64,000 bases of DNA from Syntrophorhabdaceae bacterium (GTDB lineage Bacteria; Desulfobacterota; Syntrophorhabdia; Syntrophorhabdales; Syntrophorhabdaceae). How positions within the stretch are numbered: the first letter of the stretch is position 1; each line of letters starts with the position of its first letter. The stretch covers positions 160,001 through 224,000 of the forward strand of contig CAXXUO010000001.1 of NCBI GenBank assembly GCA_963666485.2, written 5' to 3'. Below, piece by piece: positions 15,417-38,643 of this stretch. The translations under genes were made by a program, and so were the position numbers. The notes under the pieces were generated by a model. The model was not told the DNA's origin and did no database searches. It saw only the letters and a list, made by a program, of their open reading frames with translations.

Positions 15417-16245
15417 TCATACGCCCGGTTTGTCCCGGTACCTGTGGATCACCGTGCCGCCCATTATGGTCATGCCGACCTGAAAGAAATAACCTTTCAC
15501 TGGCTTAATAGCGCCCAGGTCCGTCAATTCTTCAAAGTCTGAAGGAAAGAAACGGATATCCGCATCGCCCTCCCAGGCGTCACCGATCTTTGCATTCGTA
15601 ACATTGCTGATGAGAAGGTCGTGCACAAGGGGCTTTTCCTGGTCTTCATAATCCGGGAAATGGCGCATGAGGTAGAACTTGAACGGGGGGACTTTGTTCG
15701 GGGGAACCTGTTTTTTCAAGGTCAGGGAACCCTCGACGATCCTCTCTTCGTGGGACACGCATATGCCCTTTATTTTTGCACCGGTCTTTTTGCCGCCCGT
15801 GACGGGCATCAATTCATGGAGCTTTGTGATATGGGACCCTGCCGAGTTTTTTGGGAAACCCCTGGATAAAGCCCCTTAAGAGAGTGAAATCATTATCCAC
15901 CCAGATGTACGGCACATAGTAGCCGGGAACGCCTTTGAACTGGCAGCCGACCATGATAATGCATTCATGATACAACGACCTCTCGGGATTGACAGAGGCA
16001 AGATCGGGATTCGCATCGCTCGCGGAGACCCATTCAACGAACCAGACCACCCCTTCGCCGGGGTTGGGGCCCGGTTCAAGGGGAGGTGGCAATAACGCCC
16101 TCAATTTTTTCTCGTTTGCCTTGAAGACGAGGTGCATGACATCCCCGCCGTAGTGCCACGGGGGCGCGTCAATGACAGGCGCTTTTCCTTTGGGGGACAG
16201 GGGCAGAATATAGCCTTTGAGCGGAAAAGATCTTTTCGTTGCCAT
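15417..16245 (-). pseudogene. ADC-family (MppR-like) gene split by a one-base frameshift near 15833-15835
   Basis: GGAGGA RBS then MATKRSF...PPWHY...IWVDND...GFPKKLGRV; removing one C from GTCCCAT restores HITKLHELMPVTG and joins the 15417-15812 ORF. Confidence 0.8.
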
Positions 16246-16496
16246 AGCTTTCCTCCTGGAGATCCAGCTTAAAATGATTGTCCCACTGATCATCCGCATT
16301 GTCAATGAGCCGGGACTCGAAACCGATTCCCGGGAAAACGGGCATCATGCCGGAATAAGGATGTGGTAACGGTCGCGATGAAGATATGAGAGATCAGCCT
16401 TTCAGGAACTTTGTTTTTCCCTAAGTGACCGATCGTTGTAACGTTGAAAACAGCCTGATATACTTGCTGTATACATTAAAAGCGGAGGCGGTGCCT

Positions 16497-25490: not shown

Positions 25491-25765
25491 GGTTGATGGC
25501 ACAACGAATGACTACCCCTCCCCGTCATCCCGGTGCTTGACACCGGGATCCAGTGTCTTTGCCTTTGTTTCTTCGTTTCGGGTTTACGTAGCCCAGGGGC
25601 TCAACAACAATGAAAGACAGGCGGTACGAAAAAGAGGGAAAACCTTGGATCCCGGTGTCAAGCACCGGGATGACGATATCTGGTTGGGGATGACGATATC
25701 TGGTTGGGGATGACGATATCTGGTTGGGGTCCACGATATGATAGCTGTTTAATATGCCATCAACC
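25491..25765. mobile_element. MITE-like element with 11-bp terminal inverted repeats, containing an inverted REP pair and a 20-bp tandem repeat
   Basis: GGTTGATGGCA (25491-25501) and TGCCATCAACC (25755-25765); REPs at 25523-25552 and 25646-25675. Confidence 0.5.
25667..25739. repeat. 20-bp tandem repeat, 3 perfect copies plus 1 degenerate
   Basis: (GGGATGACGATATCTGGTTG)3, starting inside the 3' end of a REP. Confidence 0.9.
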
Positions 25766-27619: not shown

Positions 27620-28135
27620 TTACTTGTTTTTGCCCCCCTTCATGGTGAAGCGCCATTTACAAAAGAGATTCTCGGGGTGCGGGTCGGGAGGGGCGAACAC
27701 GCATTCAACCTTTATGTCCCTGTCGATCTCCTCGATCATATTCGCAAATTCCCCGAGATGCATCTCCTTGCAGCTGTATTCTCCCACTCCTTTCTTCAGC
27801 CGGGCCTCCTGGGATGCGCAATGGGAGATCGAGACTATGACCTCCTCGTCTTTCTCCTCGATGTCGAACTCCGATATCATTGTCCACGGGGAATAGCGCA
27901 GGACCCTGGCAAGGCCTTTCAGGCCTTTTTCCTCGATGGAGAACTTCTTTATGATCTCGCGGGTCATGATCTTGCCCATCCTGTGCCACACCTGTTCATT
28001 GATCTTGATAGCGGCATCGTAGCCGTAGGTATGTTCGACCCCGAGAAACCAGAACCCGTCGGTCTTTCTGAACAGGTCCACCATGAACTCAATATAAGGC
28101 CGAAGCTCTTCGCTATCGAACTCGCGTATCTTCAT
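27620..28135 (-). CDS. DUF6125-like protein
   Basis: DGFWFLGVE...G.DAA...W, C..QEAR..KG...C and C.FAPPD...CKW motifs; GGAGG RBS. Confidence 0.65.
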   Translation of the reverse strand: MKIREFDSEELRPYIEFMVDLFRKTDGFWFLGVEHTYGYDAAIKINEQVWHRMGKIMTREIIKKFSIEEKGLKGLARVLRYSPWTMISEFDIEEKDEEVIVSISHCASQEARLKKGVGEYSCKEMHLGEFANMIEEIDRDIKVECVFAPPDPHPENLFCKWRFTMKGGKNK

Positions 28136-30384: not shown

Positions 30385-30579
30385 GGTGTCCTCCTTGAAT
30401 CTCGGAATAAAAACATTATTCGAGTGCGGCCTGCAGGTTCCCTGGCGACCATATGCTGGGATATTATCAAACAGTAGTTTTTCCGTCAATCAAGAAACTT
30501 TGCCGAGGGACGTCCATGTAACCCCCCCATCCCTTTTTACATTGCAACACCTGACCCCATGCCCTCTTCCGTTCGCATC

Positions 30580-31146
30580 TCACTTTTCCACTTCTTTTCG
30601 TATCCTGTCAACGTCTACCCGGTTCACGTAGCTGATAATGTTGGCCCATGCGCGGTTGTACCTGTATCCTCCTTCGACCATTTCGCGAATGGCTTCCTCT
30701 TTCGTCCACCCCTGGTCTACGATCCTGAACATTGCAACCATAACGCCAACTCGATCCGAACCTTTCCAGCAGTGGATCAAAAATGGACCATTCTCTCTTT
30801 TCCTGATTATCCGCAAAACCCTTACTACATCTTCATCCTCAATATGCCACGGTTTCACGTTCAGTTTTTCGACGTGTAATCCCGTCCCCTCGATCGCGTC
30901 CGCATCAGGATCAAACACATTCAACTCTATCACGGTCTTTATTCCTATTCTCTCAAGGTTCTTCATCCCTTCCGCAGTCGGCTCCTCGCTTCTATAAAGA
31001 TAGTCAGTGATCTTGTAAATATTGGTGAAACCTTCTACCTGTACCGGTGTCGCCCAGGATGCCGGCCGACCTGGCCCTACTGTGCTTTGAACGCAGCCCG
31101 GAAGAGGGGACGCCAACAAGACCAATAGCCAGAGAACAATCCGCAT
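30580..31146 (-). CDS. Cys-based (tyrosine/dual-specificity) phosphatase, probable lipoprotein
   Basis: IHCWKGSDRVG P-loop (HCxxGxxR); LPGC lipobox-like signal; GAGGAGG RBS. Confidence 0.88.
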   Translation of the reverse strand: MRIVLWLLVLLASPLPGCVQSTVGPGRPASWATPVQVEGFTNIYKITDYLYRSEEPTAEGMKNLERIGIKTVIELNVFDPDADAIEGTGLHVEKLNVKPWHIEDEDVVRVLRIIRKRENGPFLIHCWKGSDRVGVMVAMFRIVDQGWTKEEAIREMVEGGYRYNRAWANIISYVNRVDVDRIRKEVEK

Positions 31147-31370
31147 TACAAGTACCTCCTCTTCGCGCAATCCCTGCCTGTTCACATTATAAGCAGTGCT
31201 TACGGTAAAGAAACCGTTGAGGTCATGCTTGGATGCATAACCGGGGGACGTTCGTTAAAAACTAAAAAACTCCAATTTATTGTCACTGACACGTTATTGC
31301 AGAGCATTGAGAATTATTGGACACGAGGACTAGGGGTGTCCTCCTGTCCAATACCGTGATATACTATCGG

Positions 31371-32063
31371 ATGAAATTTTCTATCAGTAAAAGCCTGCAT
31401 TTCGATGATCTCTCACAATGGCTCTCGGGCCTTGAAAAGATCCCCCTGGAACTCGCGCTACCTTACGATATGCAGGAATTTTTGTCTATCGTCGGGCGCC
31501 TTGACGAACTGAAAGAGTATGTGCGGGATAAAAACATAGTCGTCAATTCAGTCCATGCACCCCATGCGCGCCTTTCCGCCAACGCGTTCCCGTCATGGGC
31601 ACTGCCGGTTATGAGGTTTTCGTTCAGGGTCAGCGCCCGCTTTTGTGTCTTTCATCCTGAGAATCATGTAGCAAAGGCAAGAAAACCTGACTTTCAAGCA
31701 ATTGCCCTCTCGTACATAAAGTCTGTACAGACGAAAATCTCTGTCCCGATGGCGATCGAGACCTTAAGAAGCAACAGCAGGTTGTTCACACCCGCGGAAA
31801 TAGTGCAGCATGATCTGCCCATGGCCCTGAACACGTCACACATAACAGAACAGCTGGCAATCAAGCTGATAGAACAATACTCAGGTAATATTGTGGATGT
31901 CCGTCTGTCGGAAAATGGGACCTCATCGGAAGGATTCGGTATTTCCATACTTGAAGCATTAAAAGTCAGGAAATGGGATGGGTCCGTGACCCTGGAATAC
32001 TTACCGGAAAATCAAGACAGGCTCATGCCGGACAGGGAACGGCTGGAAAGTATGTTCGGATGA
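31371..32063 (+). CDS. Sugar-phosphate isomerase/epimerase-like TIM-barrel protein, degenerate metal ligands
   Basis: SVHAP, VFHP, AIET, LNTSH and TLEY motifs. Confidence 0.65.
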   Translation: MKFSISKSLHFDDLSQWLSGLEKIPLELALPYDMQEFLSIVGRLDELKEYVRDKNIVVNSVHAPHARLSANAFPSWALPVMRFSFRVSARFCVFHPENHVAKARKPDFQAIALSYIKSVQTKISVPMAIETLRSNSRLFTPAEIVQHDLPMALNTSHITEQLAIKLIEQYSGNIVDVRLSENGTSSEGFGISILEALKVRKWDGSVTLEYLPENQDRLMPDRERLESMFG

Positions 32064-32146
32064 ACACAATATTCCCCAGAATCGGGATGCGCGAATGAAG
32101 GTGTTTATTCTTTGAAGAACGTCCCCCTCCTTCCCGCTTCTTTTTT

Positions 32147-33013
32147 TCAATTGTCAGATTTCCACCGGCCGCCTTCCTCGGCGAATGTGCTCCACTGGTT
32201 ACCGGAGAAGATGATGACCGCTGTTCCGCCACGCACGACAACGCGCTTGATATTCTTGAGGGAATCTTCCATATCCTTTGCGGCCTCCTGCGCGAATGCC
32301 TTCGCCTCATCCGCGCTCATCCGGGCGAGAAGAAGGTCCGTCCTGGCGTTTGACCGTTCGGTCGACAGGCGCTTGACCGCGTCAAAATCGCCTTTCTTCA
32401 GAGCGTTGATCTTTTCCTTCAGGACCTTTGCCTGCGGGCTGTCCTGTGCGGCCTTGCCCTTAAGGTCGGCAGTGACCGGCAATTCATTGAAAAGCGGGGC
32501 GCTGAATTTTACAGAGAAGGATATCGTCGGTATCTCATCGTTTCCGGCACCCTTCTCGGTATACTCGGTTTCCCCCGAAACCCGTGTCTTTGAGACGGCA
32601 AGGTTCTTGAAAAGCTTCTTTCCGGAATCGCTGCGGCTCAGGGTCGTGAGCGACATGCCCTGTCGGGAAGGCTTCCGGAGAATTGTCACAACCATCTTAC
32701 TCTGGTCCGCCGGATCGAACTGGAGGAGGAGTCCGCGGACCTTGCCTTCTTTGGCCAGGGTCGTGACCGGCAGGAAGGCTATTCCCCGCAGGGACTCCTG
32801 AGGAACCTTCCTGTCCGCCAGCACTATGCGGATCTCTTTCGGGCGGTCGAGCAATCCTTCGGCGTTGTCGTGGAATTGGGCATAAGCCTCTTTCAACTCG
32901 ATCGTTTCATTATTGATCACGAGAGTGCCTTGCACCCTGCCGGGATCGATAGCGTGCGCCGCTTGAAAACACAACAGCAGAAGAATAAGAAAACTCAGAA
33001 CGGTTCTTGTCAT
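32147..33013 (-). CDS. Hypothetical exported protein
   Basis: Signal peptide ending AHA; 288 aa. Confidence 0.75.
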   Translation of the reverse strand: MTRTVLSFLILLLLCFQAAHAIDPGRVQGTLVINNETIELKEAYAQFHDNAEGLLDRPKEIRIVLADRKVPQESLRGIAFLPVTTLAKEGKVRGLLLQFDPADQSKMVVTILRKPSRQGMSLTTLSRSDSGKKLFKNLAVSKTRVSGETEYTEKGAGNDEIPTISFSVKFSAPLFNELPVTADLKGKAAQDSPQAKVLKEKINALKKGDFDAVKRLSTERSNARTDLLLARMSADEAKAFAQEAAKDMEDSLKNIKRVVVRGGTAVIIFSGNQWSTFAEEGGRWKSDN

Positions 33014-33042
33014 AGTTCCCCCAACGTAACCACTATTTTTCT

Positions 33043-33309
33043 CTACGTATGATCAAATATCAGCTGCTTTGCTTCGACGCCGTCAATAGCATTTAATTTC
33101 TGCGTGAATTCGTGAAAACGCGAATCGGCCCCCACAAATTCGACCAGCAGTATACCGCCGGTCGAGGCCTCTTTGTCGTCGAGCTCATGTAATCCTAACC
33201 GTGTCTTTATGTTGCCTCCAAAATCGGTTAGGACCTGCTGTACCGGCAGCGCACGCACCAGCCGCTCCGTGACGTGAATCCCGAGAATGAGGTGTTTAGC
33301 TTTCTTCAT
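33043..33309 (-). CDS. Small ACT-like protein (TM1266 / iron-only hydrogenase regulator-like)
   Basis: GGAGG RBS; VQQVLT.FG.NIKTRLGLH and L..IDGVE motifs. Confidence 0.65.
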   Translation of the reverse strand: MKKAKHLILGIHVTERLVRALPVQQVLTDFGGNIKTRLGLHELDDKEASTGGILLVEFVGADSRFHEFTQKLNAIDGVEAKQLIFDHT

Positions 33310-33852
33310 AACGTAACCTCCTGAGATAATGGTATTGTGGTGTATGATAGAATTATATCACGTTTAGGCCGTTTCCCGGCTTCAACGTAATTCAATTTCG
33401 ACATGCCTGCCGTGCCTTCTTGGCCTGCCCTTATCAATTGCGTGCATTGGGGGTCATCACACATTGTGCGTGAGACAGGCTGCAAACAAGGAATGGCGAC
33501 AGCTTAAAGAAGATCTCGTCATGCAAGCGTTCCATTACACGACCTGACCCCATAATTCTTGCAAGCTGGCAGAAGGTGACGAGATATTGACATATTCAGG
33601 AACGTACCCGGTTTACCGACTCACCTTCATACATATTGTGCGTGATAGGCCACGGTGCAAGATTACCCCACTGTGCTGAAATAACAACATATTTAGTCTT
33701 TCATGACTCTACCCCGTCTTGCAAAAGAGGAAGGTCTCGGAGGATAATTTTTAACAAGGGCAAGCCGGGTCCAGGCGTGACGTCACGACAGCTATTGATC
33801 CGTTGGTTGCCAACGAGACCGCGGGAAATTGCGGGAACCACAGGAGGGTGCA

Positions 33853-34671
33853 ATGATCGATACATTGACCAACTTTGACCGTTTTTTAACCGTTTATCTT
33901 ATTCCCGTCGGGTGGAAAGTTCTCGGTGCCATCGTCCTGTGGATAGCAGGAGGCTGGGCGATCAGGATTATCGGGAATCTTTCGGGAAAGGGAATGCGGG
34001 CGCAAAAATTGGATCCCACGCTCATTAAGTACTTCGATGCCACTATCCGGGTTATCCTCAAAATAGTCCTTGTCATAGCGATCCTTTCCATCTTCGGCAT
34101 CCAGACCACGTCCTTCGTGGCCCTGATCGCTGCTGCCGGCATCGCTATCGGGGCAGCTTGGGGAGGTCTCCTGGCAAATTTCGCGGCCGGCGCCTTTCTC
34201 ATTATTCTGAGGCCTTTTCATGTCGGGGACATGATCACGGCAGCCGGGATGACGGGCGATGTCAGGGAAATCGGACTATTCGCCACAACCATCGATACAG
34301 TAGACAATCTCCGTGTTGTTGTGGGCAACAACAAGATCCTGTCGGACAACATCGTCAACTATACGACCAACCCGTTCCGACGCGTCGACCTGAAAGCACA
34401 GCTTGCCCAGAGTGTGGACCCCAATGAAGCAGCGACGCGCCTCACGGAACGGGTAAAGAAGATACCAAACGTCGTGGAGTCTCCCGCCCCGTCCGTGGAG
34501 ATACTGGAATTCAACCTCGCCGGACCGGTGCTCGCTGTGCGCCCTTTCTGCCACAACAAAGATTACTGGCAAGTGTTCTTTGACACGAACAGGGCAATAC
34601 AGGAGGTTTGCGCAACGGCCGGCTATGCAGCGCCGTGGACGAACCGGGTGGTTTATCATAAACCCCTGTAA
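33853..34671 (+). CDS. Small-conductance mechanosensitive channel, MscS family
   Basis: 3 TM segments, AGIAIG.A..G.LANFAAG, RPF.VGD and G.V.EIGLF motifs. Confidence 0.93.
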   Translation: MIDTLTNFDRFLTVYLIPVGWKVLGAIVLWIAGGWAIRIIGNLSGKGMRAQKLDPTLIKYFDATIRVILKIVLVIAILSIFGIQTTSFVALIAAAGIAIGAAWGGLLANFAAGAFLIILRPFHVGDMITAAGMTGDVREIGLFATTIDTVDNLRVVVGNNKILSDNIVNYTTNPFRRVDLKAQLAQSVDPNEAATRLTERVKKIPNVVESPAPSVEILEFNLAGPVLAVRPFCHNKDYWQVFFDTNRAIQEVCATAGYAAPWTNRVVYHKPL

Positions 34672-34734
34672 TGCCTGATGTCAGGTCAAGGAGAGACAGC
34701 GGGAAGGCAGGGGACGTCCCTGACTTCCTGCATG

Positions 34735-35220
34735 CTACTTTGCCAAACGTACGGGAAGAACTCTTTGAAAAAGGTTGGTTGACTGCTTGAGCCACATCCG
34801 TTTGCCGCCGAAGAATTCTAAACCGGCGACCTCAGAACCTCGCGTTTCGGACGCCAGCACCAGGTCGCATGAAAATCGGATCAATTTTGTCAGATGTTCC
34901 TCTCCACATTCAGACTGGTAGGTCTTGCTCCTGTCATACAGGCCGGCAAGTTCGTCCAGGGTCGGCATCCGCCAGTCTGTGTAGCCGCCGCCGCGAAAAT
35001 TCTGGCAATATGATCTGGCATTGGAATAGCTGATGTCGCTTCCGTTGTCCTTTGCCGCCCACATAAGATTGGTCCTCGTATCGAGAACCGTTCCGTTGTC
35101 GTAGGCGATAAAAGGGCCATCCCGACCCGTCTCTCCCGCCGTGACATATTGGGCAGCGATGATTCCTGCAAAAGCGGCCATTATCAGTACCGCCGCCATT
35201 GTTGCCGATGGTCTTCTCAT
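34735..35220 (-). CDS. DUF1566 (Lcl C-terminal) domain exported protein
   Basis: NGTVLD..TNLMW, A..YC, GGYTDWRMPT..EL and C-terminal VLPVR motifs. Confidence 0.85.
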   Translation of the reverse strand: MRRPSATMAAVLIMAAFAGIIAAQYVTAGETGRDGPFIAYDNGTVLDTRTNLMWAAKDNGSDISYSNARSYCQNFRGGGYTDWRMPTLDELAGLYDRSKTYQSECGEEHLTKLIRFSCDLVLASETRGSEVAGLEFFGGKRMWLKQSTNLFQRVLPVRLAK

Positions 35221-35401
35221 ACCCGGACCCCCTTTCGCTTTATGTTTTCCACTTCAACTGCCTGACTTTTCTCAGGCATCAAAAATCATCCGATCTCCGG
35301 CCCTCCCTCTTAGCTGGCTCGTTAGGCTTGGACTTGACCCGGACAGACAGGACCGTCCTTTAAGGACGCCCTATCTTCCCTGTCTTCGAGGGGTCTTCCT
35401 G

Positions 35402-35689
35402 TTAATATTTGTCGGGATTGAAGTTGCCTTCATGACCGAAATGCTTTTTATTCGCATTTTTCTGAGCCGCTATGTCGCTCGCGCTGGCTCCGTTGTCATG
35501 CATCCTGGTAATGATCTTATCCGCGGCGTTCTTGCGCTTTTGATCCATATCTTTTTCTTTTTGCGTGGATTGACCTGACGTAGTGCCTGTTTTCGAAGTG
35601 TCCGCCGCCATTACATTCAATGCCTGACCGGCGAAAAAGCTGCATGATACGACTAATGCGCTCAACAAAACCAGGGTTCTTCCTTTCAT
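35402..35689 (-). CDS. Hypothetical secreted protein
   Basis: GGAG RBS, signal peptide, hydrophilic mature part. Confidence 0.65.
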   Translation of the reverse strand: MKGRTLVLLSALVVSCSFFAGQALNVMAADTSKTGTTSGQSTQKEKDMDQKRKNAADKIITRMHDNGASASDIAAQKNANKKHFGHEGNFNPDKY

Positions 35690-36145
35690 GATCTCTCTCC
35701 TTCCGGGCATTTTTTGTGATTGAGTATATCAGAGCATGTACGGGTTTTCAATGCCAGGGTTGGCAAGGGCAAAAGCCTTCCTCAGGTTTGCTCAAATCCA
35801 GAGATCCCGGCGTCGTACCGACTCGTAGTCTTTTGCTGACCCCGTTCCCTTTCCCTTTCGCGGCCAATCGGCGACAAAAGGAGAGATATTGAGATATTTG
35901 AGGACGTCCCCGAGCCCCATTACGAACCCCCCTGAGAGATTCCCTGACCCGCAACGAGGGCCGAGATATTGGCATATCTAAGGACGTCCCCGAGTTCCTC
36001 GTCCCTGAGTTCCTGCATCACCACTAGAGTTCTAAAATGGTGATATTGCAAGTTCTGATCTCATGTTTCTGTTGACATAATATCAGGAAATTCGTACACT
36101 CAAATCTCGAAACGAGTAAATTTTTGACCACAAAAGGGGAAACAG

Positions 36146-36490
36146 ATGAAAAAGCTGAACATAATGATGGGCGCTTCCATATTTCTTTTGGCAATATTCA
36201 TTGTTAACGCAACGGCGTACGAAAGAGTATACAGCTACGAGCCCGAAACAGAATATGTCGGGCAAGGGGTCGTTGATTTTAAGAATATAACACCAGAACA
36301 GTGCCTGGCGGCTTGCAAACGGGAAGGCCGGTGTGGGTATTATACCTGGTATCCTGCCGGCGCGCCATCAGCAAGCACCCGGTATTCCCCGGCTGAGAAC
36401 AAATATACGCGGTGTTTACTTATGATGGGCCCGTTCAAAAAGTACACGAAGAGGGCGGCCATCTCCGGCATGATACAGGAGAGCAGATAA
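36146..36490 (+). CDS. Secreted PAN/Apple-like domain protein
   Basis: Signal peptide; PEQCLAAC...RCGYYTW...CLL...AISG pattern. Confidence 0.65.
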   Translation: MKKLNIMMGASIFLLAIFIVNATAYERVYSYEPETEYVGQGVVDFKNITPEQCLAACKREGRCGYYTWYPAGAPSASTRYSPAENKYTRCLLMMGPFKKYTKRAAISGMIQESR

Positions 36491-36535
36491 CCAAGAGTTC
36501 TTCACGTGTCGAGAATCATGTCCGGTCCGCAGTAC

Positions 36536-36622
36536 CGAAAATAAGGCGCCAAGTAAGGCGCCATATTTTTTTATAAAAAACTCAGTAACGACCTACTTTC
36601 CTACAGAGTCGCCCCTGCAGTA
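36536..36622 (-). pseudogene. Degenerate copy of the 5S rRNA 3' end plus its downstream terminator
   Basis: 36581-36622 matches 38528-38569 at 37 of 42 positions; the flanking GGCGCC..GGCGCC terminator sequence is also echoed. Confidence 0.85.
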
Positions 36623-36849
36623 AGGGCGTCCCTGACTCTCTGACTATCCTAAGGACAGAAGGCCTAGATATTTCTCTAAAATCACCGAGGTTGTTCAATC
36701 GTAGGCTCTACCCCCTGTTTTGAGCAAATATTGACATATCCAAGGACGTCCCTCAGTTACTTTTTAACGAACGCTCCTGGTCGCCCTATAATCTTTGGTA
36801 ACTCTGCCTGACTTTGTGTAAGATAAGGATCAGATGAGGAGATGCAATC

Positions 36850-37311
36850 ATGGATGAACTGACCGATTCCCATTCCTGGGCTGTAAAAGGGGATAAGCTT
36901 AGGGCGGACAAAAATTGGCCGGAGCTTATCAAACACTGTGAAAACTGGCTAAAAAAATACCCTGGAGAGCTCAGCGCTCAAATCCTTCTTGGGGAAGCAT
37001 ATAACAATGCAGGCCGATACCAGGAATCGATGGACCTCTATTTCAAAGTCGTTACAAAAAGACCCAATGATTATGCGACCTGGTATTTGCTCGGTTCTCT
37101 CGCTGTCAGAGTCGGGAAAACTGAGGAAGCTATCAACTACTTCTCAATGGCAGTCTACACGAACCGTGATATGGGGGCGACAATCAAATCGACGTACCCG
37201 GACCTTTACGAAAAAGTAAGAAAACAATCCGGTTCGAATAGAATATTGCGGCTTTGCGTCGGAATAATCATTCTTATCCTGTTTGCAATCGCGGTCTGGA
37301 TATTTTTCTAA
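36850..37311 (+). CDS. TPR-containing protein with C-terminal TM helix
   Basis: GAGGAG RBS; LGEAY...GRY.ES and WYLLG...GK.EEA..YF..A repeats. Confidence 0.8.
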   Translation: MDELTDSHSWAVKGDKLRADKNWPELIKHCENWLKKYPGELSAQILLGEAYNNAGRYQESMDLYFKVVTKRPNDYATWYLLGSLAVRVGKTEEAINYFSMAVYTNRDMGATIKSTYPDLYEKVRKQSGSNRILRLCVGIIILILFAIAVWIFF

Positions 37312-37519
37312 ATTAATCACGTACATTCAACGCGTTCTTCCCCGCTGAGATTCAAGGGGCGTTGAAGCCCCCCAAACACTCCGGACAACTGAGTCAACAA
37401 CGCTCCCTTTTTTATATTGAGTGACTCGATATTCCAAAGTTAAGGATCTGCCCGATATATTACTTTTTAACGAACGTTCCTAATCACCCGAATTATTGAA
37501 GATCGTTCGAATCCTCTTC

Positions 37520-37969
37520 CTAGGGCAATGGGGGCATCTTGCCGGTGCTCTTCCCATCCTTCGCATATTTGAGGGCGATTCCGACTGTCATATCCTCCGG
37601 GCTGCCTTTTACAAGGATGCTGCTAAACCTTCCATTCCTTGTTTGTTCCGATTCCGGGTATTCAAGAACTATCTCGCCCTTCTCACTATACCAATGGGAT
37701 TCCAGTATCCTTGTCCCGCGCGGCTCGTTTGTACGGGCTTCGACCTTATCGAGGATCCTCTTGGTCTTCATGGCGGGCTCCGGTTTATCATTCACTGTCA
37801 GCCGCCAGTATGTGATCGTGTCCTTGTTCCTGGTGACACTGTCGGAGTCTATGTAGTATTTTGCCGTTATGCCAAGCATCGTATTGGTAGTAACATGCAC
37901 CCAGTTCGTCGCAAACGCACTACCGGAGAAGAAAAGAAATGCCAGGAAGCAGAAGATAACTTTTTTCAT
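37520..37969 (-). CDS. Exported hypothetical protein (surface-adhesin-E-like)
   Basis: GGAGG RBS, signal peptide, W......YYIDSDSV.R.....YW pattern. Confidence 0.6.
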   Translation of the reverse strand: MKKVIFCFLAFLFFSGSAFATNWVHVTTNTMLGITAKYYIDSDSVTRNKDTITYWRLTVNDKPEPAMKTKRILDKVEARTNEPRGTRILESHWYSEKGEIVLEYPESEQTRNGRFSSILVKGSPEDMTVGIALKYAKDGKSTGKMPPLP

Positions 37970-38150
37970 ACCGCGAACCTCCCTTATAAATGATTCCGGC
38001 GATCTCGGAGAACACATTCAGGCAACATGTCCGCTATATAATAAAAATCGATCGTCGCTCTTGCAATCAAATTAATGAGGCATGATGATCAATATTCGAC
38101 TCATTCTTTAAAAAAGCACTAAAAGCCCAAAATTTGAAGACGGAAAACCT

Positions 38151-38308
38151 TGGATCCCGGTGTCAAGCACCGGGATCACGGCACGTAATAAAGGATAACG
38201 GGCTAAAATAAACAAATGATGGGCTAATAATAAAATATATAATTTCAAAGGCAAAGACACTGGATGGCAATGACAACCAACTGGATTCCCGCATTCGCGG
38301 GAATGACG
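38151..38308. repeat. CGTC-type REP palindromes: 2 copies plus a truncated copy
   Basis: TGGATCCCGGTGTCAAGCACCGGGATCACG (38151-38180) and TGGATTCCCGCATTCGCGGGAATGACG (38282-38308). Confidence 0.85.
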
Positions 38309-38526: not shown

Positions 38527-38643
38527 ACCCGGCAACGACCTACTTTCCCACAGAGTCACCCCTGCAGTATCATCGGCGCGGTAGAGCTTAACTGCCGTGT
38601 TCGGGATGGGAACGGGTGTGGCCTCTACGCTATGGTCACCGGG
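38527..38643 (-). rRNA. rrf: 5S rRNA
   Basis: Conserved CCCGTTCCCATCCCGAACAC and GAAAGTAGGTCGTTGCCGGG; ends approximate. Confidence 0.97.

Follow-up and report, generated by a model that had tools for sequence, protein, structure and literature searches.

Integrons combine an IntI recombinase and an attI site with attC cassettes that share one orientation, each cassette ending in a folded attC. Insertion sequences of the IS200/IS605 group, such as IS608 and ISDra2, have subterminal hairpins and no terminal inverted repeats (TIRs) and insert 3' of a fixed tetra- or pentanucleotide; classical miniature inverted-repeat transposable elements (MITEs) are derived from DDE transposons and make target duplications. 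The elements most relevant here were named TIRtrons by Di Nocera, De Gregorio and Rocco in 2013, the accessible sections of whose paper (PMC3733652) apply the term to genes that resemble RAYTs, the transposases associated with repetitive extragenic palindromic (REP) sequences, and that have long flanking TIRs; the encoded proteins are called TIRYT. The same sections give TIRtrons a shared tip, GGGGWSAS, and moderately abundant TIR families that occur singly, as dimers or in clusters, and state that REP-type repeats mostly follow genes or separate convergent ones. Quentin et al. (2018; PMC6006769, in the portion available) assigned 20 of 26 TIRYT examples to subclass 2.1 of the TnpA_REP-like proteins, with Bac_DnaA_C or helix-turn-helix (HTH) tails. 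In the literature that could be consulted in part, the names TIRtron and TIRYT appear only in the naming paper and in one phylogenomic survey, and no biochemical study was found. The present analysis concerns a stretch of 64,000 nucleotides from a member of the Syntrophorhabdaceae (assembly GCA_963666485.2, contig CAXXUO010000001.1, positions 160,001 to 224,000), hereafter the window, in which short motifs recur among unrelated small genes from 30500 to 37520, beside an rRNA operon. An initial annotation had taken these motifs for scars of repeated gene capture and had guessed that a RAYT-like Y1/HUH enzyme acting in trans was responsible. Very probably the window motif is the outer tip of the TIRs of TIRtron-type elements, present here as orphan copies among accessory genes; such elements are ~1.2-kb units, each with a RAYT-like Y1/HUH tyrosine transposase bearing a DnaA-C-like HTH tail (TIRYT).

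Transposase genes and their ends

Two genes of this kind are present in the genome, both far outside the window and, according to tblastn, the sole two. RAYT-A (C1:678806-679798) is an open reading frame (ORF) of 331 aa with inverted family A ends on both sides, and RAYT-B (C2:655343-656335), whose product is 46% identical, is flanked by inverted family B ends (three to its left, one to its right). Both proteins exceed the Pfam cut-off of 23 bits for Y1_Tnp (27.1 bits for RAYT-A, 33.2 for RAYT-B); for Bac_DnaA_C the cut-off of 31.5 bits is passed by RAYT-B (33.8), and RAYT-A, at 30 bits, lies just under it. The best NCBIfam model for both is REP_Tyr_transpos, at 52.6 and 61.7 bits, under its cut-off of 80. 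A PF01797 family search of the genome missed both genes, and their identification rests on the protein Pfam scan and on tblastn. In an alignment of 11 related proteins, the HUH histidines (H-x-H) and the tyrosine of the motif Y-I-H-L-N-P are invariant; a phmmer search of RAYT-B against PDB sequences gave no match at E <= 0.01.

The flanks of the transposase genes consist of inverted ends of 26-27 nt with a palindrome in their tips. The initial annotation had proposed to examine whether Y1_Tnp genes of this genome end in the window motifs: both genes with Y1_Tnp and Bac_DnaA_C likeness are flanked by inverted repeats carrying the same palindrome in their tips, and the RAYT-B element itself ends in the 29-bp repeat seen in the window. 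Since the genome's own Y1 genes end in the window motifs, the guess of a RAYT enzyme withstood its test, and that part of the earlier interpretation is confirmed. The ends are TIRs and not REP stem-loops; six single ends, when folded as DNA, did no better than shuffled sequences (z from -0.70 to +1.25).

Beside both transposase genes (C1:679949-680055 and C2:655061-655176), TIR tips of one orientation are repeated in tandem along with their short flanks, in arrays that look like the products of repeated abortive cut-and-join events. The surroundings of RAYT-B (C2:649000-661500) form a second nest, with seven B ends and two weak A ends, where the ORFs, judged by eye, encode two PTP-like phosphatases, an ATPase, an HNH-like protein, a rhodanese, a ferritin-like protein and a toxin-antitoxin-like pair.

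Recurrent motifs and TIR families in the genome

All the motif positions given in the initial annotation were verified in the sequence, and the motifs were counted on both strands of the 3.77-Mb genome against an expectation from base composition. The 8-letter palindrome GGACGTCC has 159 sites where 79.9 are expected, and its 10-letter extensions are far more enriched, with 70 sites where 10.0 are expected and 67 where 12.1 are; a previously noted 17-mer has a 13-letter core that occurs four times against 0.1 expected. By contrast, ACCTGACCCC (12 sites, 10.4 expected) and CTCTACCCC (25 sites, 38.9 expected) show no enrichment and are thus at chance level as motifs, so that the earlier motif list stands for the GGACGTCC-type sites and for the repeats of 17 and 29 nt, and falls for these two words. 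The region from 30500 to 37520 holds five of the 159 palindrome sites against ~0.3 expected from genome density, and the full window holds eight. When the flanks of all 159 sites were listed, many proved to belong to repeat families in which a common tip is followed by a family-specific, AT-rich interior.

Ends of four such families were sought by fuzzy scan with the reversed genome as control, family A being accepted at up to six mismatches. Family A has 45 ends (1 in the control), family B 13 (0), family C 5 (0) and family D 2 (1); with two matches against one, D was rejected as a repeat family of this genome. The pooled families amount to 63 unique ends in 26 clusters. Family A includes dimers of ~120 bp (two ends with 101 nt between them) as well as tandem arrays. 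No other 7 kb of the genome is as rich in ends as that from window position 31244 (31.2-37.5 kb), which contains eight against 0.12 expected, a count that is partly circular and inflated, as the window itself served to define families C and D; the second densest 7 kb is the RAYT-B locus, with seven. Family B, defined outside the window, has by itself four of its 13 copies within 33.5-36.8 kb. The only C copy outside the window is a non-coding doublet of C ends, 484 bp long (C1:1391807-1392290), whose right end (C1:1392269) is a twin of window positions 32105-32126; no relic of a transposase ORF was detected by tblastn inside this doublet or inside 31244-32127.

Transposase and TIR clades in relatives

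Of 20 genomes in the genus, 17 contain RAYT-like genes (E <= 1e-20). At 20 of the 24 RAYT-like loci examined, a flank contains the core or a version of it with one letter changed, and the four loci that lack it encode the most distant proteins (31-36% identity). The interior of the TIR varies with the protein clade: clade A genes have A-type ends, and clade B genes, with products 67-100% identical to RAYT-B, have B-type ends. The ends of a third clade, C (genomes G005, G009 and G015), match the family of the window 17-mer over ~32 nt, while a fourth, D (G001, G008, G009 and G016), has, 13 nt before the gene, a tip resembling those at 34712 and 36622 in the window. Wider relatives number at least 594 (one genome per species), most of their records being titled Desulfobacterales, Syntrophales or Syntrophorhabdus. 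TIRs were found at 53 of the 63 wider-relative loci with both flanks available, and 51 of these 53, counted by eye, open with the same six-letter tip, which in most cases precedes the start codon by 55-66 nt.

The ends in the window

The enriched motifs of the window are TIRYT ends, densely packed, and occur as solo ends, one tandem pair and one inverted pair round an ordinary gene. Repeat finding recovered the 29-bp repeat that had been reported in three copies (35886, 35966 and 36728) and added a degenerate fourth at 33584; the second reported shared flank was also recovered (34715 and 36000, 19 nt, 95% alike), as was the 17-mer pair at 36757 and 37460 with its inverse at 31245.

The inverted pair begins with a family C end of left type (31244..31275, minus strand, one mismatch), its interior facing higher coordinates, which shares ~32 nt with the TIRs of the clade-C transposase genes in G009 and G015 and lies 127 nt before the ATG at 31371. 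Its partner is an A/C-like end of right type (32096..32127, plus strand, four mismatches) that follows the stop codon at 32063 by 42 nt, the convergent gene's stop, at 32147, being 21 nt away; the two (31243-31274 and 32096-32127) are 78% complementary over 32 nt. The only gene they enclose is a plus-strand ORF of 230 aa (31371..32063) without a Pfam match, but with an Atlas score of 0.96 and a family common to 29 of 30 matches, and it probably encodes a xylose-isomerase-like TIM barrel (AP_endonuc_2).

All further ends are on the plus strand. A degenerate solo family B end (33583..33609) has three mismatches to the end of the RAYT-B element. At 34696..34733 a tip (core 34712-34719) with a 12-nt flank in common with 36000-36018 occupies the 63-nt spacer between the convergent MscS and Lcl_C genes. 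The tandem pair is formed by a solo family B end at 35885..35911 (three mismatches) and by the segment 35965..36014, in which another B end (35965-35991) is followed by a tandem duplication with a 15-nt unit that starts inside the palindrome. Farther to the right, a solo B end (36727..36753, three mismatches) is abutted by a solo C end (36757..36778) that overlaps a promoter-like match, and a last solo C end with two mismatches (37460..37481) lies between the convergent TPR and Adhesin_E-like genes. Two sites remain apart: the palindrome near 30508 (30505..30518) is isolated, has no recognisable TIR context or family match and is of uncertain status, and the site at 35374 is a weak one-off variant.

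Several tips of the window lie close to gene ends. Those at 32126, 34720 and 37481, which are among the best, lie in convergent spacers of 83, 63 and 208 nt, and the five minus-strand stop codons that had been described as close to motifs lie, by coordinates, 22, 21, 15, 21 and 39 nt from the nearest one; these distances of 15-39 nt bear out the description, except that the first rests on a motif that is not enriched.

Breakpoints and tip-associated duplications

On the minus strand, 36538..36621 is a relic copy of the 3' end of the rRNA operon, comprising the terminator hairpin (36545-36562) and the last ~45 nt of 5S, with a 36-nt core 94% identical to the true 5S. Its homology ends abruptly where the tip-like motif 36622..36631 (plus strand) begins, the same motif that resembles the tip before the transposase genes of the four clade-D congeners. 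In addition, tandem duplications of 14-25 nt that start exactly three letters into the palindrome are found at six of 169 core sites against 33 of 20000 random positions, one of them at window position 35982. To judge from these sequences, such partial-tip duplications may be the footprint of nicking inside the palindrome.

A variable island between the DUF6125 gene and 5S rRNA

The stretch that harbours the ends is an island that varies within the genus, bounded on the left by a conserved DUF6125 gene (27620..28135, minus strand) and on the right by the true 5S rRNA (38527..38643, minus strand), which ends the only assembled rRNA operon. Between 30.5 and 38.0 kb there are ten genes, six on the minus and four on the plus strand; they are unrelated and mostly small, and encode a PTP-type phosphatase lipoprotein, the probable AP_endonuc_2 TIM barrel, an MscS channel, two family-less exported proteins, an 88-aa protein without a family above cut-off, and Lcl_C, PAN, TPR and Adhesin_E-like proteins. 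No integrase, recombinase or transposase family was detected among the 52 scanned ORFs of the window, in agreement with the absence of integrase and transposase noted before.

In G007 the DUF6125 anchor is ~60 nt from the 5S region and the island is absent, and in G011 the distance from anchor to TPR gene is 3 kb, against 8.6 kb in the present genome (G000). The G011 island contains a cysK-like gene and the TPR gene, bracketed on the left by a weak B end and on the right by a good one. G002 carries a family-B TIRtron, its protein 82% identical, 1.3 kb from 5S, and has additional B ends, of which one is separated by ~55 nt from a 100-nt piece of a second TPR copy; in G018 a C end follows the TPR gene by ~35 nt. 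No such ends occur within 7-15 kb of 5S in G006, G013 and two genomes of other genera, except for one match with six mismatches in G006. In all, the nest is present in four of the seven congeners with an assembled 5S flank. The comparison of related genomes that had been suggested to locate breakpoints thus revealed a stretch that varies in the genus, with one breakpoint exactly on a tip.

Within the species, four contig sets from one sample of one study, probably the source of the assembly, showed no indel or variant in 27.5-38.1 kb apart from repeat-type joints, namely a joint from 33612 to 38284 with 25 nt on one side, read as a repeat artefact, and others in a hairpin repeat near 38.2 kb. 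A metagenome scan with the DUF6125 anchor gave 80 loci, none from the same species (at most 86% amino-acid identity); among the 21 closest loci, which were mapped, ends are present in two only, L065, which is G011's own contig, and L067, a metagenome contig of a relative. On the other side of the DUF6125 gene, L067 contains a B end, the relic of a transposase, an A/C end and a complete RAYT-like gene.

Proposed explanation and alternatives

The ends could have been laid down over time by Y1 enzymes acting in trans and then eroded by deletion, persisting in short spacers downstream of genes, where insertions would be tolerated. Their accumulation here might be due to the DUF6125-5S stretch being a dispensable, fast-changing accessory island in this lineage. 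The ends may also be sites of DNA breakage and rejoining, which would account for the duplications that restart in the palindrome and for the 5S relic that stops at a tip. Mobilisation in trans, the position of the cut and the order of events are what we infer from these arrangements.

Besides the circularity of the density count, several observations weigh against this explanation. Ends of three or four families are found together in one 7-kb stretch; all ends in 30500-37520 except that at 31244 have identical orientation; and the tips at 34712 and 36622 show only ~10-12 nt of family likeness. No clade-C or clade-D transposase gene was found by tblastn in the own assembly, so that the C and D-like copies of the window are orphans, and their ends are either relics or in need of cross-mobilisation. 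Such ends are lacking in three of the seven congeners with an assembled 5S flank, and no transposition was seen in the contigs of the single available sample. The breakpoints at tips and the TPR fragment near a B end in G002 together hint that the ends are more than passive litter.

That the motifs are a chance recurrence of short GC-rich intergenic words is a negligible prospect. It would suit ACCTGACCCC and CTCTACCCC, no commoner than expected, and the sites at 30508 and 35374, which have no family context; against it, ends of 22-27 nt match families of 5 to 45 genome copies where the reversed genome yields 0 or 1, and the ends in the window match those of transposase genes in the own and sister genomes. 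For the main motifs, these sequence comparisons refute chance. The integron-like platform of the initial annotation, in which small genes would be captured as units by a trans-acting Y1 enzyme and the tips would be junction scars beside the rRNA operon, is more substantial, though it too is unlikely. The gene at 31371-32063 lies inside inverted TIRs at distances of 127 and 42 nt, close to the ~150 and 28-34 nt round clade-C transposase genes; the G011 cysK-like and TPR genes are likewise bracketed by B ends; the island genes are found at scattered loci in congeners; tips closely follow stop codons; and the 5S relic stops at a tip. These points are met by others: the six minus-strand and four plus-strand genes differ from integron cassettes, which share one orientation, and all ends but one are solo ends of right type, which leaves most genes without a left and right pair. 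Homologues of the bracketed gene in G002, G003, G007, G013 and G018 have no ends nearby and different neighbours, and past the 32-nt TIR the bracketed unit has no homology to clade-C elements. In G011 (L215:10100-11918) the MscS gene and a TPR-like exported gene lie between genes that are adjacent in G000 (C9:439098-439205), the empty site; neither place has a tip, and no core occurs in 3.9 kb round the G011 MscS gene. MscS is at yet other loci in G012, G013 and G014. Gene order is fluid throughout the genus, so that scattering is not specific to the island, and the closeness of tips to stops is also that of REP-type repeats as described in the accessible sections of PMC3733652. With mixed gene orientation, mostly solo ends and genes that move in relatives without ends, the idea of junction scars is unsupported and stays a minority reading. 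A bolder scheme is held to be just as improbable: the TIR tips of several families would serve Y1 enzymes as shared break-and-join sites, cut inside the palindrome, and genes enclosed by two ends or adjoining a single one would be excised, re-joined to other tips and so, with time, build a Y1/HUH analogue of a cassette array next to the rRNA operon.

A third view, that the repeats are kept as regulatory DNA (outward promoters, terminators or binding sites for the HTH tail of TIRYT), hence their location by gene ends, is still less probable and is best regarded as very doubtful. A promoter-like match (36764-36792, 10 of 12 positions), 58 nt before the TPR start, runs into the C end at 36757-36778; its first hexamer is inside the end and its second, a perfect consensus, in the flank, so that the promoter, if there is one, might be a hybrid. 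A perfect -35-like hexamer is present in family B ends, and REP-type repeats, too, are placed mostly downstream of genes and between convergent genes in those sections of PMC3733652. On the other side, overlap with an end is seen for a single promoter-like match out of 17, a total that compares with 8.8 (standard deviation 2.8) in shuffles; single ends fold no better than shuffles and would therefore make poor terminators; and the copies are degenerate (1-4 mismatches), with a family that differs from site to site.

With the ends read as TIR tips of TIRtron-type elements, the genus is a compact test bed, with four co-evolving transposase/TIR clades, a shared tip, abundant non-autonomous copies and partial-tip duplications that point to a cut site. 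The surroundings of the rRNA operon are a hot spot in which ends from several clades have gathered and at least one rearrangement is marked by them. Should the ends move neighbouring genes, a new route of gene shuffling would be at hand; should they not, the region is a good example of where TIRtron-type elements come to rest.

Other repeats and genes of the window

The window also contains a different palindromic repeat, 33-40 nt long and with a GC-rich stem of 10 bp, at 38147-38180, 25522-25552 and 25637-25671. Blast gives 69 hits to it in the genome, and congeners have copies too; the repeat often forms inverted pairs with 85-160 nt between them and looks REPIN-like, with no dedicated transposase evident, and one copy (C2:655016-655053) directly adjoins the left TIR array of RAYT-B. 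Five of the 26 TIR clusters have a copy within 250 bp, against 0.37 by random placement, a comparison from which no conclusion is drawn, since both kinds of repeat are intergenic and the true expectation is several-fold above 0.37. Per kb, the G+C content of the island stretch is 46-55% against 55% for the genome, a patchy pattern that is not decisive. Elsewhere in the window (15420-16305) a homologue of acetoacetate decarboxylase is split into two ORFs, 15817-16305 covering profile positions 3-116 and 15420-15812 positions 119-237, which indicates a frameshift or an in-frame stop.

Comparison with known systems

With integrons the region has in common a run of unrelated small genes, a short recurrent element by gene ends and a content that varies among relatives, but the orientation is mixed, attC-like folded sites are lacking and the enzyme belongs to another class; no IntI-type tyrosine recombinase is encoded by the 52 window ORFs, the rest of the genome not having been searched. 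The likeness to IS200/IS605 consists of Y1/HUH chemistry and, probably, single-strand cleavage at a short conserved word by the end, whereas the ends described here are true inverted repeats without stable hairpins. Family A dimers and the C doublet at C1:1391807-1392290 look like non-coding TIR derivatives in the manner of MITEs, except that no target duplications were seen. The REPIN/RAYT system, as presented in the available parts of Bertels and Rainey 2011 (PMC3116915 and PMC3337134), is similar in its Y1 transposase of few copies, its non-autonomous short intergenic repeats and its inverted dimers, which are of ~120 bp in family A. REP units are palindromic stem-loops of 20-40 nt tagged by GTAG or CGTC. 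The system differs in that the units found here form no stem-loops and have no GTAG tag, CGTC being present in the tip without a stem-loop, and in that the proteins fall under the NCBIfam cut-off for REP_Tyr_transpos (52.6 and 61.7 against 80).

The agreement with TIRtrons is much wider, and extends to a RAYT-like Y1 gene with HUH motif and catalytic tyrosine, a DnaA-C-like C-terminal HTH, a G-rich conserved tip, long TIRs in place of REP hairpins and copies that are single, dimeric or clustered. The Bac_DnaA_C-like HTH tail of TnpA_REP-like subclass 2.1.2, as far as that subclass is described in the text available, is present in RAYT-B (33.8 bits), with RAYT-A just under the cut-off. Set against the accessible account of TIRtrons, several features are particular to this locus: the tip runs into an 8-letter palindrome, the window has no TIRYT gene and packs orphan ends of several families beside an rRNA operon, and one inverted pair encloses a gene that is not a transposase. 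Of the published tip GGGGWSAS, the first six letters fit, and the seventh is G and not A, both in the genus and in 51 of 53 wider relatives (by eye). The present elements are a further, well-populated example of TIRtrons; among the points tested, only the seventh letter of the tip departs from them.

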